Shown: positions 7,560 through 11,784, counted from the stretch's first letter. The stretch: 13,507 bases of DNA from a virus (IMGVR_UViG_2526164630_000014:1-13507); one strand, 5' to 3'. The notes: a model not told the origin generated them from the sequence alone. A program made the numbers and translations.

Positions 7560-7703
7560 ATGCGAAAAACGCAGGAAAATAAACGCGTTAATCACCGAAA
7601 AGATGTGCTACGTGACCAGTTTTATCAGGGGGTTAATCCAGCAATAGCTGTGCCACTGAGAGAAATACTTAACAGGTACAAAACTTCGGAGAAGTCAAAA
7701 TGA
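7560..7703 (+). CDS. Hypothetical small basic protein (47 aa)
   Basis: ATG at 7560 preceded by GAGG; MRKTQENKRVNHRKDVLRDQFYQGVNPAIAVPLREILNRYKTSEKSK; stop overlaps the start of the replication initiator (ATGA). The longer track ORF from 7392 overlaps cII and is probably not the true start. Confidence 0.4.
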   Translation: MRKTQENKRVNHRKDVLRDQFYQGVNPAIAVPLREILNRYKTSEKSK

Positions 7704-8497
7704 GCATGAATCTTATGGCTAAGGCCATGAATATAAAGGTTGGCAACCCACTGAGAAAACTGGTTCTGATTAAACTTGCCGATAACGCCAATGATAATGG
7801 CGAATGCTGGCCTTCATATCAACATGTCGCTGACCAGTGTGAGGTGAGCAGATCGACAGTAAAAAGTCACATTAGGGCACTGGAAGAGATGGGGCTTTTG
7901 AAAAGGGAATTCAGAAGAAAAGGAGAGCTTAACCAGTCAAACGTTTTTTATCTGACGCTGGATAATGCACAACAAATCCAACCAGAATCAGGTGGGGCAG
8001 GAGCTGCCCGGGGTGGGGCAGGAGCTGCCCGGGGTGGGGCAGGAGCTGCCCTAGGGGGTGGGGCAGGAGCTGCCCCCAGAACCTATCACTCTTTTGAACC
8101 AGTCAATGAACCTAAAAACATTATGTTCGAACATGTCCGAACAGAGTGTGAAAAAACTCCTGACCGTCACGAAGAAACCGACAAGGCATTCGAGGAAATA
8201 TTCTGGTGTGCAGGCATGCGGAAAGCCGGGAAGAAAAACGCAGCTTCAGCATTCAGAACACAGTTCAGGGAATGGCGTAAAACTACCAGGGGGACGGCAA
8301 GCGAGTTTGCCACGATGCTGGCAGAAGACATTGCGTGCAGGCTCGGTAAGCAGTTCGGGTTCGACAGGTTGTTACCATCGAGCTACCTGAACGGTCAACG
8401 CTGGAACGACGAGAAGCCAGAAACTATTCAACCACAATCCAAACCATCATCCGCAATCACCGTATCGAAAACTGGCTACGTGTTTTTCGACAGGTGA
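7700..8497 (+). CDS. Replication initiator protein (lambda O-like; N-terminal winged-HTH domain)
   Basis: 265-aa ORF. N-terminal NPLRKLVLIKLADNANDNGECWPSYQHVADQCEVSRSTVKSHIRALEEMGLLKR is typical of phage replication-initiator HTH domains. A Gly/Ala-rich linker is encoded by four tandem DNA repeats (iterons). Sits after cII and before the helicase. Confidence 0.75.
   Translation: MSMNLMAKAMNIKVGNPLRKLVLIKLADNANDNGECWPSYQHVADQCEVSRSTVKSHIRALEEMGLLKREFRRKGELNQSNVFYLTLDNAQQIQPESGGAGAARGGAGAARGGAGAALGGGAGAAPRTYHSFEPVNEPKNIMFEHVRTECEKTPDRHEETDKAFEEIFWCAGMRKAGKKNAASAFRTQFREWRKTTRGTASEFATMLAEDIACRLGKQFGFDRLLPSSYLNGQRWNDEKPETIQPQSKPSSAITVSKTGYVFFDR
7991..8077. repeat. Four tandem iterons (candidate ori) inside the initiator gene
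   Basis: Core TGGGGCAGGAGCTGCCC at 7993..8009, 8014..8030, 8035..8051 and 8059..8075 (spacing 21, 21, 24 bp); each core has an internal dyad GGGCAG/CTGCCC. Same architecture as lambda ori within gene O. Confidence 0.7.
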
Positions 8498-8500
8498 ACC

Positions 8501-8608
8501 ATGAAATCCAGAATCAAATCGTTACTTATCGCTGGCTATAACCATGGCTGGCTTAGTTCTGCATTCGTTGAGTTCTGGTTTAACCGTCTCGATCTGAGGT
8601 CAGCGTAA
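8501..8608 (+). CDS. Possible small ORF (35 aa) translationally coupled to the primase-helicase
   Basis: ATG at 8501 (MKSRIKSLLIAGYNHGWLSSAFVEFWFNRLDLRSA*); its TAA overlaps the ATG of the next gene (TAATG). Weak RBS. Confidence 0.25.
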   Translation: MKSRIKSLLIAGYNHGWLSSAFVEFWFNRLDLRSA

Positions 8609-11514
8609 TGACTCCAAGTGAACTGAGCGACCTGCTTTGGGCGCAGGTTGACAGGGTGGCTCCGCACCTGTTGCCAAACGGCAAGAAAGAGGGGCATGAG
8701 TGGGTTGCCGGTAACGTCAACGGTGACAAGGGAAACAGCCTTAAGGTCAACATTAGCGGCAAGAAAAAATGGGCTGATTTCGCTGAGGGAGACGGCGGTG
8801 ACATGCTTGATTTGTGGATGGCATGTCGTGGAATTAACCTGCATCAGGCTATGCAGGAAGCGAAAGCATTTCTCGGTATCAAGGATGACGATCACCATTT
8901 CGATGCCAAACGTGAGAAAAAATTCTCCAGACCTGACCGCAAGAAAATCGCCCGCTACGTTACCAGAACAGAATCCCATCTTGAGTACCTGCAATCGCGT
9001 GGCATATCGCCAGAAATCGTAAAGCGCTACGAGGTTGTCAGCGGCAAGGTGTGGAATGGAGAGCGGGAACTGGATGCTCTGGTGCTTCCGTACAAACGCG
9101 ATGGTGAGTTGTTGCAGGTCAAGCGAATCAGCACTGAGCGCCCGGACGGGAAGAAAGTCATTATGGCAGAAGGTGATTGCGAACCTTGTCTGTTCGGATG
9201 GCAGGCTCTGGACGCTGGCGTGAGGGCGGTTGTACTTTGCGAAGGCGAAATTGATTGTATGAGCTATGCGCAATACGGCATCTCGGCGTTATCCGTGCCG
9301 TTTGGTGGCGGGAAAGGCGCTAAGCAGCAGTGGATTGAGTTTGAGTATCACAACCTCGACAGGTTTGAGGAAATATTCATCTCGATGGACGTTGATGATG
9401 TTGGTCGTGAAGCCGCAAGGGAAATCGCAAGCCGACTCGGTGAACATCGTTGCCGTCTTGTTACTCTGCCGTACAAAGACATCAACGAATGCCTGATGAA
9501 CGGTGTTACCGAGGATGAAATCTGGCAGTACATCGGCACGGCATCCTATTTCGATCCTGAAGAACTCTACAGTGCGCGAGAGTTTTACCAGGACACTATC
9601 AACGCTTTCTACGGCAAGAAGCAGTATCTGTTTAATCCACCGTGGGAATCTCTGGCAGATAAATTCCAGTTCCGTGAGGCCGAGTTGACGCTGGTCAATG
9701 GTGTGAACGGTCACGGAAAGGCATGCCCACTGAATGAGCCTATTCTTTTAGCTGATGGGACATGGACTACTCACGGGGATGTAAAAATTGGCGATCAGGT
9801 GGCGTCAGTAGACGGCAATCCGTCAACTGTCACTGGGATATTCCCGCAGGGTGTTAGAGATGTTTACCGAGTCACATTTGAAGATGGTCGTTATGTTGAT
9901 TGCGCAGGCGATCACCTATGGGAGGTCACTAGTCGTGGATTCACGAAAGGCGAGAAACGCCGCGTGATTGACACCTTCGAGCTGAAGCGGTTGAGTGAAA
10001 CGAAGAGGCACAAAAATGGCGTTAGGATTCCTGAAATAACTGGTGACTTTGGCGACCACTCAGAGCCATTAGCATGGGTTATCGGCTCCCTTCTCGGGGA
10101 TGGTAGTCTTAGCAATGGGAGCGTGAAGTTTTCAAACGTCGAGCCATACATGATCGAGCGTATGAAGGCTGAACTGCCTGATTACAACTTCTCTGGAGAT
10201 GGTAAGGACTGGCTGATATCAACGGCGCGTGGTCAGGCAAATCCACTCATGGAGACCCTGCGAGGTTATGGACTAATGGGGTGCACAGCAAAAAACAAAT
10301 TCATCCCTCGTGTGTTTTTTTCCGCAAATAAATCAACGCGTATAGGCATGCTGTGTGGTCTGCTTGAAACGGATGGGTATGTCGAGAAGGATGGAACGCT
10401 TGTTTTTTCCTCAGCAAGTGAAGAACTGCGCAATGGGGTTGTTCAACTGGTTAACTCACTCGGCGGGTCATGCCGGACGCGAGTTAAAACTGGCGTGACA
10501 TACACATACAAGGACGATAAGCGGCATGGGATGGATTCATACGAGGCAAGAATCAGACTGACAAGAGAAATCAGGGAGGCCATCCGTTCACCACGACTCA
10601 ATGGCAGATTAACTGCGCATCGATTCGAGGGCTGTGGGGTATTCGTCAGGAATGTTGAAAAAATCGGCAATGCAGAATGCTTGTGTATTATGGTCGATCA
10701 CCCTCGCCACCTGTATGTAACCAGGGGATATGTGGCGACGCATAACACCGAGGTTGTCGGGCATATGGCACTTGAGGCAATGCGTCAGGGTGTGAAGACG
10801 TGCATCGCGTCACTTGAGCTGAAGCCTGGTATTCTCCTTAAGCGCCTTACCCGTCAGGCGACGTGCTGCAAGATGCCGCCAGTGCTGGAAATTGACTCTG
10901 CATTTAAATTTTATGACGAAAGACTTTGGGTGTTTGGCCTGACCGGAACGGCGAAAGCCGACAGGCTGATCGAAATATTCGACTACGCTCGCCGCCGATA
11001 CGGTATCCAGTTATTCATCATCGACAGCCTGATGAAATGTGGCATAGGCGACGATGACTATAACGGGCAGAAGGCGTTTGTTGACTCGATTTGCGACTTC
11101 AAAAACAAAACAAACTCCCACGTCATTCTCGTTACTCACTCGCGAAAAGGAGACAGCGAAGAAAAACCAACCGGGAAAATGGACGTAAAAGGCTCTGGAG
11201 CGATAACAGACCTGACAGACAACCTTTTCATCATCTGGCGTAACAAGGCTCGCGAGAGAGCGTTACAGAGAGTTCAGAGTGGTGAAAAGATGTCAGAGAA
11301 GGACGAACAGCTACTGGCATCTCCGGCATCTGTTTTGATGCTTGAAAAACAACGTAACGGCGAAGGTTGGGAAGGTGGTGTCCCGTTGTTCCTTGACGAG
11401 CAATCGCACCAGTTCCTGCAACTTGAATCAGGATCGCCATATAGCTACATCGCCAATATGCCGAAATCGGAATATGACGAGGCGTGGCGACAGGAAAACG
11501 TGACGGAGTATTAA
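8608..11514 (+). CDS. Bifunctional primase-helicase (Toprim primase + DnaB/gp4-like helicase), intein-containing
   Basis: 968-aa ORF. Toprim motifs VLCEGEIDCMSY and ISMDVDDVG in the N-terminal half. Helicase P-loop NGVNGHGKA split by an intein, resuming TEVVGHMALEAMRQG. Walker B-like LFIIDSLM and HVILVTHSRK downstream. Predicted spliced product 627 aa. Confidence 0.9.
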   Translation: MTPSELSDLLWAQVDRVAPHLLPNGKKEGHEWVAGNVNGDKGNSLKVNISGKKKWADFAEGDGGDMLDLWMACRGINLHQAMQEAKAFLGIKDDDHHFDAKREKKFSRPDRKKIARYVTRTESHLEYLQSRGISPEIVKRYEVVSGKVWNGERELDALVLPYKRDGELLQVKRISTERPDGKKVIMAEGDCEPCLFGWQALDAGVRAVVLCEGEIDCMSYAQYGISALSVPFGGGKGAKQQWIEFEYHNLDRFEEIFISMDVDDVGREAAREIASRLGEHRCRLVTLPYKDINECLMNGVTEDEIWQYIGTASYFDPEELYSAREFYQDTINAFYGKKQYLFNPPWESLADKFQFREAELTLVNGVNGHGKACPLNEPILLADGTWTTHGDVKIGDQVASVDGNPSTVTGIFPQGVRDVYRVTFEDGRYVDCAGDHLWEVTSRGFTKGEKRRVIDTFELKRLSETKRHKNGVRIPEITGDFGDHSEPLAWVIGSLLGDGSLSNGSVKFSNVEPYMIERMKAELPDYNFSGDGKDWLISTARGQANPLMETLRGYGLMGCTAKNKFIPRVFFSANKSTRIGMLCGLLETDGYVEKDGTLVFSSASEELRNGVVQLVNSLGGSCRTRVKTGVTYTYKDDKRHGMDSYEARIRLTREIREAIRSPRLNGRLTAHRFEGCGVFVRNVEKIGNAECLCIMVDHPRHLYVTRGYVATHNTEVVGHMALEAMRQGVKTCIASLELKPGILLKRLTRQATCCKMPPVLEIDSAFKFYDERLWVFGLTGTAKADRLIEIFDYARRRYGIQLFIIDSLMKCGIGDDDYNGQKAFVDSICDFKNKTNSHVILVTHSRKGDSEEKPTGKMDVKGSGAITDLTDNLFIIWRNKARERALQRVQSGEKMSEKDEQLLASPASVLMLEKQRNGEGWEGGVPLFLDEQSHQFLQLESGSPYSYIANMPKSEYDEAWRQENVTEY
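9724..10746 (+). mobile_element. Intein (341 aa) with LAGLIDADG homing-endonuclease domain, inserted at the helicase P-loop
   Basis: Starts with Cys (CPLNEPILLADGTWTTHGDVKIGDQV, block A), block B-like VDCAGDHLW, two LAGLIDADG motifs (VIGSLLGDGSL and LCGLLETDGYV), ends ...YVATHN followed by Thr +1. Flanking extein sequence forms a GxGK...T P-loop. Confidence 0.85.
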
Positions 11515-11784
11515 ATGAATAAAAAACAATTAGCCATTCTCGAAAAGGCATGGGATGCACAAATATCATACGCTTTGAAAGAACAGGCACTACCAATAAT
11601 CCAGACCAAATCGAAAATAGCCAGGCAGTTATGCGATGGCGGATTCCTGAACGAAGTTGAGATTACGCGCCAGATGGTAACGTTCAAAGGGTATGAGATA
11701 AATCATCATGGTATAGCAGCGTATTGTTCCCATCTTCCTGATGACGTTGACATTGATGAAATGGAAGGGGAGATGAAGCAATGA
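11515..11784 (+). CDS. Hypothetical protein (89 aa)
   Basis: ORF starting immediately after the helicase stop (TAAATG); operon-like tight packing; no family recognised. Confidence 0.5.
   Translation: MNKKQLAILEKAWDAQISYALKEQALPIIQTKSKIARQLCDGGFLNEVEITRQMVTFKGYEINHHGIAAYCSHLPDDVDIDEMEGEMKQ

Follow-up and report, generated by a model that had tools for sequence, protein, structure and literature searches.

A probable class 3 intein with a nested LAGLIDADG endonuclease domain interrupts the P-loop of a lambdoid prophage primase-helicase

Results and Discussion

The primase-helicase gene and the limits of the insertion

The window analysed here is a stretch of viral DNA of 13,507 nucleotides (IMGVR_UViG_2526164630_000014:1-13507). 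On its plus strand, an open reading frame (ORF) at positions 8608-11514, stop codon included, encodes a 968-residue precursor (109.2 kDa) of the 'P' primase-helicase in the replication module of a lambdoid Stx2a-type prophage. Within this ORF lies an in-frame block of 1026 nt (9721-10746, plus strand), which starts with Ala-Cys-Pro and encodes 342 residues. We interpret the block as a class 3 intein with a nested two-motif LAGLIDADG homing endonuclease, and put the probability of this reading at about 0.8. An earlier, sequence-only reading had described the same 968-residue protein and proposed that an intein interrupts its nucleotide-binding loop; the interruption is borne out by intein-free alleles with an exact gap at this place.

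The limits of the block were taken from a comparison of 12 full-length intein-containing alleles (from Escherichia coli, IMG/VR contigs and the Klebsiella phage phiKp_30) with six intein-free alleles. Where the window reads GHGK/ACPLNE...VATHN/TEVV (slashes mark the junctions), the intein-free alleles read GVNGHGK/TEVVGH, with exactly 1026 nt missing between the codons for Lys and Thr; the junctions are identical in all six intein-free and all 12 intein-containing alleles. Because the intein-free alleles read GK/T, the block comprises 342 residues, from Ala1 to Asn342. The intein-free alleles (for example WP_001322819.1, locus L001) are 1881 nt long, encode 626 residues and differ from the window exteins at 17-38 of 1881 nt (98-99% identity). 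The sequence-only reading had placed the start one codon later, at 9724, which gave an element of 341 residues (1023 nt), a junction GHGKA/intein/TEVV and a spliced product of 627 residues. It had also suggested a comparison with intein-free homologues. That comparison confirms the insertion but moves its start to 9721, since the intein-free alleles lack the Ala that the later start would leave as a surplus residue in the Walker A motif, and it gives predicted products of 626 residues (spliced protein, 71.1 kDa) and 38.0 kDa (free intein).

The intein-free sequence matches structures of the T7 gp4 primase-helicase (5IKN, 6N7I and 1Q57; E 1e-21 to 1e-23) and of Twinkle (E 6.5e-14) over residues 192-539, and PHROG 239, 'DNA primase/helicase', matches the spliced protein (1.5e-171). 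The protein has the Toprim primase domain and the SF4 RecA-type helicase domain with Walker A and B motifs that characterize T7 gp4/Twinkle-type proteins. The N-extein (8608-9720; 371 residues), delimited by the intein-free junction and the T7 gp4 alignment, consists of the primase part and the first stretch of the helicase domain, as far as the Walker A Lys; all features of the gene lie on the plus strand. Its Toprim domain (residues 209-296; 9232-9495) carries the EGEID and DVDD motifs and is supported by Pfam Toprim_2 (E 7.6e-12, 45.9 bits against a cutoff of 22.1) and by alignment to the T7 gp4 primase. The N-extein ends in GVNGHGK (9700-9720), the N-terminal part of Walker A, which aligns to GSGMGK(S) of T7 gp4 and has the invariant Lys(-1) as its last residue. 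The C-extein (10747-11514; 255 residues plus stop) contains the remainder of the SF4 (gp4/DnaB-like) helicase domain, as judged by the T7 gp4 alignment and Pfam AAA_25, with a Walker B-like LFIIDSL at 11011-11031. Its first residue, Thr+1 (10747-10749), would be both the C-extein nucleophile and the Walker A Thr. With GVNGHGKTEVV of the spliced protein aligned on the T7 gp4 Walker A sequence GSGMGKSTFV, the intein parts the invariant Walker A Lys from the Ser/Thr, an insertion of the kind that Kelley et al. (2016) name the 'classic' P-loop intein insertion (PMC5050341).

If the block were instead a native, immobile accessory domain of the helicase, the present annotation would be no obstacle: the RefSeq name of the gene is only 'toprim domain-containing protein' (e.g. 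WP_001444365.1), with intein and mature product unannotated, and no NCBIfam intein model passes for the block. However, near-identical genes lack the block with codon precision, it interrupts Walker A, its folds and motifs are those of Hint and LAGLIDADG domains (see below), and DnaB, PhoH and other unrelated P-loop proteins have homologous blocks at the same K/T site. A native domain, which the sequence-only reading had named as an outcome that would speak against an intein, therefore has next to no probability. Both the native-domain and the chance-ORF readings are ruled out by the intein-free alleles.

Signature residues of a class 3 splicing domain

Class 3 inteins have no Ser, Thr or Cys at position 1 and carry a non-contiguous triplet of Trp (B:12), Cys (F:4) and Thr (G:5) (PMC2807308, PMC3196547). 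They splice by way of a branched intermediate on the block F Cys (PMC2807308, PMC3196547), their +1 residue is usually Ser or Thr, with Cys as the one known exception (PMC2807308), and they have been reported to be monophyletic (Tori et al., 2010; PMC2807308).

All class 3 signature residues are present in the window element, namely Ala1, His65, Trp67, Cys322, Thr340, His341, Asn342 and Thr+1, and with Ala at position 1 the Cys, Ser or Thr of class 1 is absent. Splicing block A (ACPLNEPILLADG; 9721-9759) opens with the non-nucleophilic Ala1, followed by an unconserved Cys2. Block B (GRYVDCAGDHLWEV; 9886-9927) includes GDHLW, with His65 (B:10) and Trp67 (B:12; codon 9919-9921), and its H-x-W aligns in HMMER to H-Q-W of the class 3 DnaBi1 inteins of Mycobacterium chimaera (Mch) and M. 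smegmatis (Msm). Block F (AECLCIMVDHPRHLYV; 10672-10719) contains Cys322 (F:4; codon 10684-10686), which is predicted to initiate splicing as the nucleophile and to serve as the branch point, and block G (GYVATHN; 10726-10746) holds Thr340 (G:5), His341 and Asn342. The same mycobacterial inteins, Mch 6RIX/6RIY (E 4.8e-10) and Msm 6BS8, are the best sequence matches in the Protein Data Bank (PDB). The HMMER alignments to the three structures span blocks A/B and F/G, and place Cys322, in CLCIMVDHP.HLY, on the catalytic block F Cys in RCVEVDNP.HLY of 6RIX and 6BS8.

Relatives were collected by an exhaustive HMMER search of 1.84 billion representatives, which gave 16,992 sequences at E ≤ 1e-3 and 2,951 at E ≤ 1e-30. 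A census was made of the 147 top relatives with all signature positions aligned, using local alignment with ungapped extrapolation to the junction. The full set H-W-C-T-H-N is found in 145 of them; the block B His and Trp and the block F Cys each occur in 147 of 147 and the block G Thr in 145, and the +1 residue is Thr (133), Ser (13) or Cys (1). In 120 relatives the intein begins directly after GK, with Ala as the first residue in 96 and with Gln (95) or Leu (21) prevailing at position 2; Cys2 of the window is idiosyncratic.

This Cys had been taken by the sequence-only reading for the first residue of an intein with canonical blocks. The C-terminal part of that description, His-Asn followed by Thr+1, agrees with the ...VATHN/T end of the element, whereas its N-terminal part does not, because the first residue is Ala, the Trp-Cys-Thr triplet of class 3 is present, and the Cys is an unconserved second residue. 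As a canonical class 1 intein starting at 9724, the element would use an N-S acyl shift at Cys1 and leave GHGKA-TEVV in the product. A Cys does adjoin the junction, the element ends in His-Asn followed by Thr, and by 2009 three WCT inteins that start with Ser or Cys had been described (PMC2807308). A class 1 intein is nevertheless highly improbable here: GK/T without Ala is the reading in each of the six sequenced intein-free alleles and in about 210 genomes with the 1881-nt form, a surplus Ala would break the GxxGxGK(T/S) Walker A motif aligned to T7 gp4, the 120 relatives that start right after GK mostly begin with Ala and have Gln, Leu or Met next, and the sister intein of a Stx-phage DnaB (see below) starts with Ala-Met. 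By every sequence signature the element is class 3, not class 1, and Cys322, rather than Cys2, should initiate splicing.

An endonuclease domain within the splicing domain

Two LAGLIDADG motifs, already recognized in the sequence-only reading, lie between blocks B and F, and Pfam LAGLIDADG_3 passes its cutoff (35.1 bits against 22.5, E 1.6e-8). Motif 1 (block C; LAWVIGSLLGDGSL; 10069-10110) contains LLGDG with the acidic Asp127, and motif 2 (block E; RIGMLCGLLETDGYV; 10339-10383), detected with the same Pfam model, contains LLETDG with the acidic Asp218. Between them, endonuclease block D (KNKFIPRVFF; 10291-10320) carries Lys193-x-Ile195-Pro196, in a region that aligns to PI-SceI residues 282-359. 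Asp127, Asp218, Lys193, Ile195 and Pro196 are invariant in the alignment with relatives. PI-SceI is also the next PDB sequence match after the mycobacterial inteins, over the central part with blocks D and E (E ~8e-7; HMMER).

An AlphaFold (AF2) model of the intein has a pLDDT of 77 and a pTM of 0.70. In Foldseek it matches PI-SceI (1EF0 and 1VDE) over its whole length (E 1e-17 to 1e-18, TM 0.70-0.72), and further matches were to the VMA and PI-PfuI inteins and, for the Hint part, to class 3 DnaB inteins. Taken together, the motifs and the model indicate that a LAGLIDADG endonuclease with two motifs is inserted into a Hint splicing domain. By analogy with characterized enzymes of this family, endonuclease activity and homing are plausible.

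Distribution and allele comparison

The gene is found in 296 complete E. coli genomes, of which 79 (~27%) cover the full length with the intein, in several extein backgrounds, and about 210 contain the 1881-nt intein-free form (a match in two pieces). Carriers of the intein thus amount to 79 of 5426 complete E. coli genomes, and Shiga-toxin-producing serotypes form the majority of the carrier genomes listed. About 2% of complete E. coli genomes have one of two prophage inteins, in P or in a DnaB-type helicase. The sequence-only reading had described inteins as unusual in E. coli-type lambdoid prophages; this agrees with the literature, where they 'appear to be absent' (PMC5050341), but not with the 79 of 5426 genomes that carry the P intein and the 24-30 more that carry the sister intein.

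Between the 12 intein-containing and the six intein-free alleles, the sole fixed difference in the exteins is the wobble base of Thr+1 (10749), which is ACC in 12 of 12 and ACG in 6 of 6. The third base of Lys(-1) (9720; AAG versus AAA) is associated with the intein but not fixed. The Thr+1 change could be a minimal co-conversion footprint or an altered endonuclease target. Going outward from the intein, the first extein polymorphisms are met after 40 nt on the upstream side and 114 nt on the downstream side, and any co-conversion tract must therefore be short.

The intein haplotype of the window is found unchanged (0/1026) on exteins that differ at up to 26/1881 sites (up to 1.4%). In the comparison of the window with locus L005, for example, there are 25/1881 differences in the exteins and 0/1026 in the intein (Fisher P = 2.3e-5). 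Other intein haplotypes are 6-7, 25-26 and 38 nt different, and intein-containing and intein-free alleles are interleaved by extein distance. These data are consistent with recent lateral spread, and fit homing as well as ordinary phage recombination.

The same 968-residue intein-containing gene is present in Klebsiella phage phiKp_30 (P22-like, Lederbergvirus; L003, 782-3688), in a copy that is 97.5% identical. Its intein differs from that of the window at 26 positions, of which 21 fall in the Hint parts (429 nt) and only 5 in the endonuclease part (597 nt), an uneven distribution that suggests mosaic recombination inside the intein. Measured against this copy, the intein has a dN/dS of 0.16, with most changes in the Hint parts, and the exteins have a dN/dS of about 0.1. 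Of 14 full-length copies, 12 retain the open frame, and the ORF is under purifying selection.

Decayed copies and alternative interpretations

Single-T deletions occur in two otherwise full-length copies (L028 and L027), in runs of T7 (10315-10321) and T6 (10403-10408) within the endonuclease domain. They could be sequencing errors or real decay, and the frameshift would also abolish the C-extein. Other copies are cut after intein residue 241, at about locus position 3715, by an IS3-family element with HTH_Tnp_1 and rve ORFs; these are E. coli ECMA0423, Shigella flexneri SFBU1023 and an IMG/VR contig (L013, L014 and L025). The IS-cut S. flexneri and E. coli copies are 98% identical to the window over intein residues 1-241. 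Truncation by this insertion accounts for the 'partial' primase inteins of Shigella prophages in InBase, and PHROG 510 ('DNA primase') appears to have been built from N-extein plus half-intein fragments.

The truncated and frameshifted copies would fit an element that is a splicing-dead relic, with a non-functional helicase in a decaying prophage or a phage that replicates with another helicase. A precedent is the class 3 look-alike Arsp-FB24 Arth_1007 of a prophage remnant, a pseudogene whose inactivity has been demonstrated (PMC3196547). For the window intein we consider this improbable. Unlike in Arth_1007, His B:10, Trp B:12, Cys F:4, Thr G:5, His-Asn and Thr+1 are all intact, the ORF is open, and the low dN/dS values apply to intein and exteins alike. 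Furthermore, the identical allele is found in Φ24B and Min27, deposited as isolated phages, in which, as in the window, it is the sole helicase/primase gene of the replication module beside the O-like initiator. Φ24B is described as infective (PMC3430580). The occurrence of the identical allele in these two phages argues that the element splices.

Several points weigh against a splicing and homing intein in the window. Pfam Hom_end_hint scores 26.3 bits, under its gathering score of 32.1, and no NCBIfam intein model is above cutoff for the element; the Hint assignment rests on the motifs, the fold and the alignments to PDB sequences. With only four sequences as its input, the AF2 model is of moderate confidence. 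The Asp of the block B 'DxxH' (Asp62 in Msm DnaBi1) is Ala62 here, at a position that is variable among relatives. With two copies frameshifted and some Shigella and E. coli copies IS-truncated, not every copy is functional. For the endonuclease domain, dN/dS is 0.48, a value that derives from five changes and is uninformative either way, and the contrast in diversity between intein and exteins could stem from ordinary homologous recombination among lambdoid phages.

The last two points bear on a narrower alternative, in which splicing works but the endonuclease is inactive, and the intein spreads vertically and by general homologous recombination between lambdoid phages. This is a serious possibility, although clearly the less probable one. 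Lambdoid phages are highly mosaic, and only 84% of the window itself matches Φ24B and Min27; extein polymorphisms set in close to the intein on either side, and the homopolymer frameshifts of two copies lie in the endonuclease domain. On the other hand, the acidic residues of both LAGLIDADG motifs are kept, as is the block D Lys, and all three are conserved across relatives, the intein is identical on exteins up to 1.4% apart, more than a quarter of the gene-bearing E. coli genomes carry it on several extein backgrounds, and a closely similar copy is present in a Klebsiella P22-like phage.

Predicted splicing and homing

The chemistry proposed here for the class 3 intein follows the experimentally studied members of the class, MP-Be DnaB, Dra Snf2 and Msm/Mle DnaB (PMC2807308, PMC5222942, PMC6195587), and LAGLIDADG enzymes serve as the model for its endonuclease. 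Translation would yield the 109-kDa precursor, which is presumably inactive because its ATP-binding loop is split. Since residue 1 is Ala, splicing would not start by the usual N-S acyl shift. Cys322, aided by His65 and Trp67 of block B, would attack the Lys(-1)-Ala1 bond to form the block F thioester branched intermediate, from which the N-extein would be transferred onto the side chain of Thr+1. Cyclisation of Asn342 would then free the 38-kDa intein, and an O-N shift would rebuild the GK-T peptide bond, resulting in an active 626-residue (71-kDa) helicase-primase. The endonuclease of the freed intein may cut intein-free alleles at GGAAAA/ACGGAG, and repair from an intein-containing phage or prophage would copy the intein in. 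The precursor holds the Walker A Lys and Thr 342 residues apart, from which we infer that the module requires splicing for replication; this supports what the sequence-only reading had deduced for the prophage.

In M. smegmatis, H2O2 reversibly inhibits the splicing of DnaBi1, likewise a class 3 intein in a P-loop (PMC6195587). The class and insertion site shared with this intein, together with extra cysteines, are the sole basis on which we speculate that splicing could be conditional in the window intein too, for example through reversible oxidation of Cys322 with Cys320, Cys61 or Cys2 as possible disulfide partners; we consider this unlikely. If true, it would place a post-translational redox gate on the DNA replication of Stx2a prophages. 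Stx2 output depends on phage replication, and such a gate could also affect toxin production.

The surrounding prophage

Directly upstream of the primase-helicase gene, in the same replication module, lies the gene for an O-like replication initiator (7700-8497, plus strand; HTH_36 in Pfam, 'replication initiation protein' in PHROGs). The primase-helicase gene is 100% identical to that of the 'toprim domain-containing protein' of many E. coli O157:H7 and O111 chromosomes. The chromosomal copies are located in the early region of a lambdoid prophage with stx2a downstream, in the order exo-bet-gam-kil-cIII-N ... cI-cro-cII-O-like-P-ninB ... Q-tRNAs-stx2AB. The 100% identical allele is also present in the phage records Min27, Φ24B, Stx2a_F403/F451 and phiXuzhou21.

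An ORF encoding 89 residues (11515-11784, plus strand; phrog_2239, function unknown) starts right after the P stop codon (TAA ATG). Among the loci examined, it is found downstream of intein-containing alleles (L002, L005 and L006), whereas intein-free loci have ninB instead, a pattern for which mosaicism of the phages is a more probable cause than any link with the intein.

Between N and cI, on the minus strand, the window has genes for a 285-residue NYN-domain protein (PF01936; 4640-5497) and a 113-residue DUF3024 protein (5646-5987), the latter matching the PADLOC candidate defence family PDC-S43 (7e-42). The two genes fill the slot where Φ24B and Min27 have the stk kinase, and may be a prophage-borne defence or exclusion pair. 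At least 80% of the 1.8-kb NYN/DUF3024 segment is present in 9 of 5426 complete E. coli genomes. Because this cargo differs, the intact whole window is absent from complete E. coli genomes (best match 86%) and from phage records (best match 84%, to Φ24B and Min27).

A sister intein and other relatives

A second class 3 intein, of 339 residues, is located in a 797-residue DnaB-type helicase of the Stx2-converting phage Stx2a 981509 (LC487996.1; L004, 2971-3987). Its layout is ARPGMGK/AMALSEG...NHLW...ECLCIMV...VTHN/TELA, and it is 50% identical to the window intein over the full length (E 2e-121). The sister intein occurs in 51 other Stx2a phage records (including TL-2011a and LC6160xx) and in 24-30 complete E. 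coli genomes (O157, O121 and others), and no mention of it was found in the papers searched. It shares with the window intein the K/T Walker A site, Ala1, the WCT triplet, the HN/T end and the type of endonuclease, but its host helicase is non-orthologous (DnaB family) and its second residue is Met. Only the G-K/T-E codons are common to the DNA flanks of the two Stx-phage inteins (22/48 nt), which therefore provide no evidence for a shared recognition site.

Two further relatives were inspected individually. The PhoH-like ATPase P0004 (595 residues) carries a class 3 intein at GTGK/A...THN/T. In P0003 (357 residues, from an ENA metagenome), His B:10 is replaced by Gln and Cys F:4 by Arg, and the sequence ends in THC. 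It looks free-standing or N-terminally cut, and may be a decayed or domesticated derivative.

Comparison with known systems

Smith et al. (2012; BMC Genomics 13:311) described the 968-residue P protein of Φ24B as containing an intein at residues 372-702, with HintN from residue 372, and noted P orthologues in a Shigella flexneri prophage and in Min27, with no experimental data given (PMC3430580). The Φ24B/Min27 P intein is the same element as that of the window: its DNA is 100% identical, and its host likewise has a TOPRIM primase N-terminus and a gp4d-helicase C-terminus. The limits in that report are approximate (372-702, against 372-713 here), and it assigns no class, describes no endonuclease and makes no comparison with intein-free alleles. 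The cargo of the immunity region also differs, with NYN/DUF3024 in the window and stk in Φ24B. Tori et al. (2010) cite the InBase entries ShP-Sfv-2a-2457T-n and -301-n Primase, from Shigella flexneri prophages, as inteins without an N-terminal nucleophile (PMC2807308). These entries are partial and end before block F, whereas the window copy is complete. InBase presumably also holds full-length entries 'EP-Min27 Primase' (class 3) and 'ShP-Sfv-5 Primase'.

The mycobacterial class 3 DnaB inteins (Msm DnaBi1, 6BS8; Mch DnaBi1, 6RIX/6RIY; Mle DnaB; with that of mycobacteriophage Bethlehem DnaB as the prototype) occupy the same Walker A site of a replicative helicase. They share with the window intein the Ala-type start, His65 and Trp67 in the same numbering, the block F Cys, Thr-His-Asn and a Ser/Thr at +1 (residue numbering for Msm/Mle from PMC5222942, P-loop location from PMC6195587). 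The identity over the Hint part is about 27-29%, and Asp62 of DxxH is Ala in the window. The solved mycobacterial inteins are mini-inteins of 139-145 residues without an endonuclease, whereas the window intein keeps a full LAGLIDADG domain, and the hosts are DnaB and a gp4-type primase-helicase fusion, respectively. PI-SceI (the VMA1 intein) and the archaeal VMA/PI-PfuI inteins have the same two-domain fold of Hint and LAGLIDADG (Foldseek E 1e-15 to 1e-18, TM 0.66-0.72). In contrast to the window intein, PI-SceI belongs to class 1 (Cys1, Cys+1) and resides in a V-ATPase subunit, and its identity to the window intein is about 15%.

Class 3 inteins at the P-loops of helicases and PhoH, their proposed phage origin and their structures are established (PMC3196547, PMC6195587, PMC5050341). 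The element in the window is already known, and Lys/Thr P-loop inteins of class 3 are a known kind, not a new one. What we add refines a known element: the exact boundaries, the explicit class 3 assignment with a family census, the anatomy of the endonuclease, the allele polymorphism and the sister DnaB intein. The limits 9721-10746, the predicted chemistry at Cys322 and the 626-residue mature product are needed to annotate or express the replication protein of Stx phages correctly. The full-length class 3 inteins of these phages, with endonucleases, a tractable host and natural intein-free alleles, offer a convenient system for in vivo tests of splicing, homing and conditional splicing.

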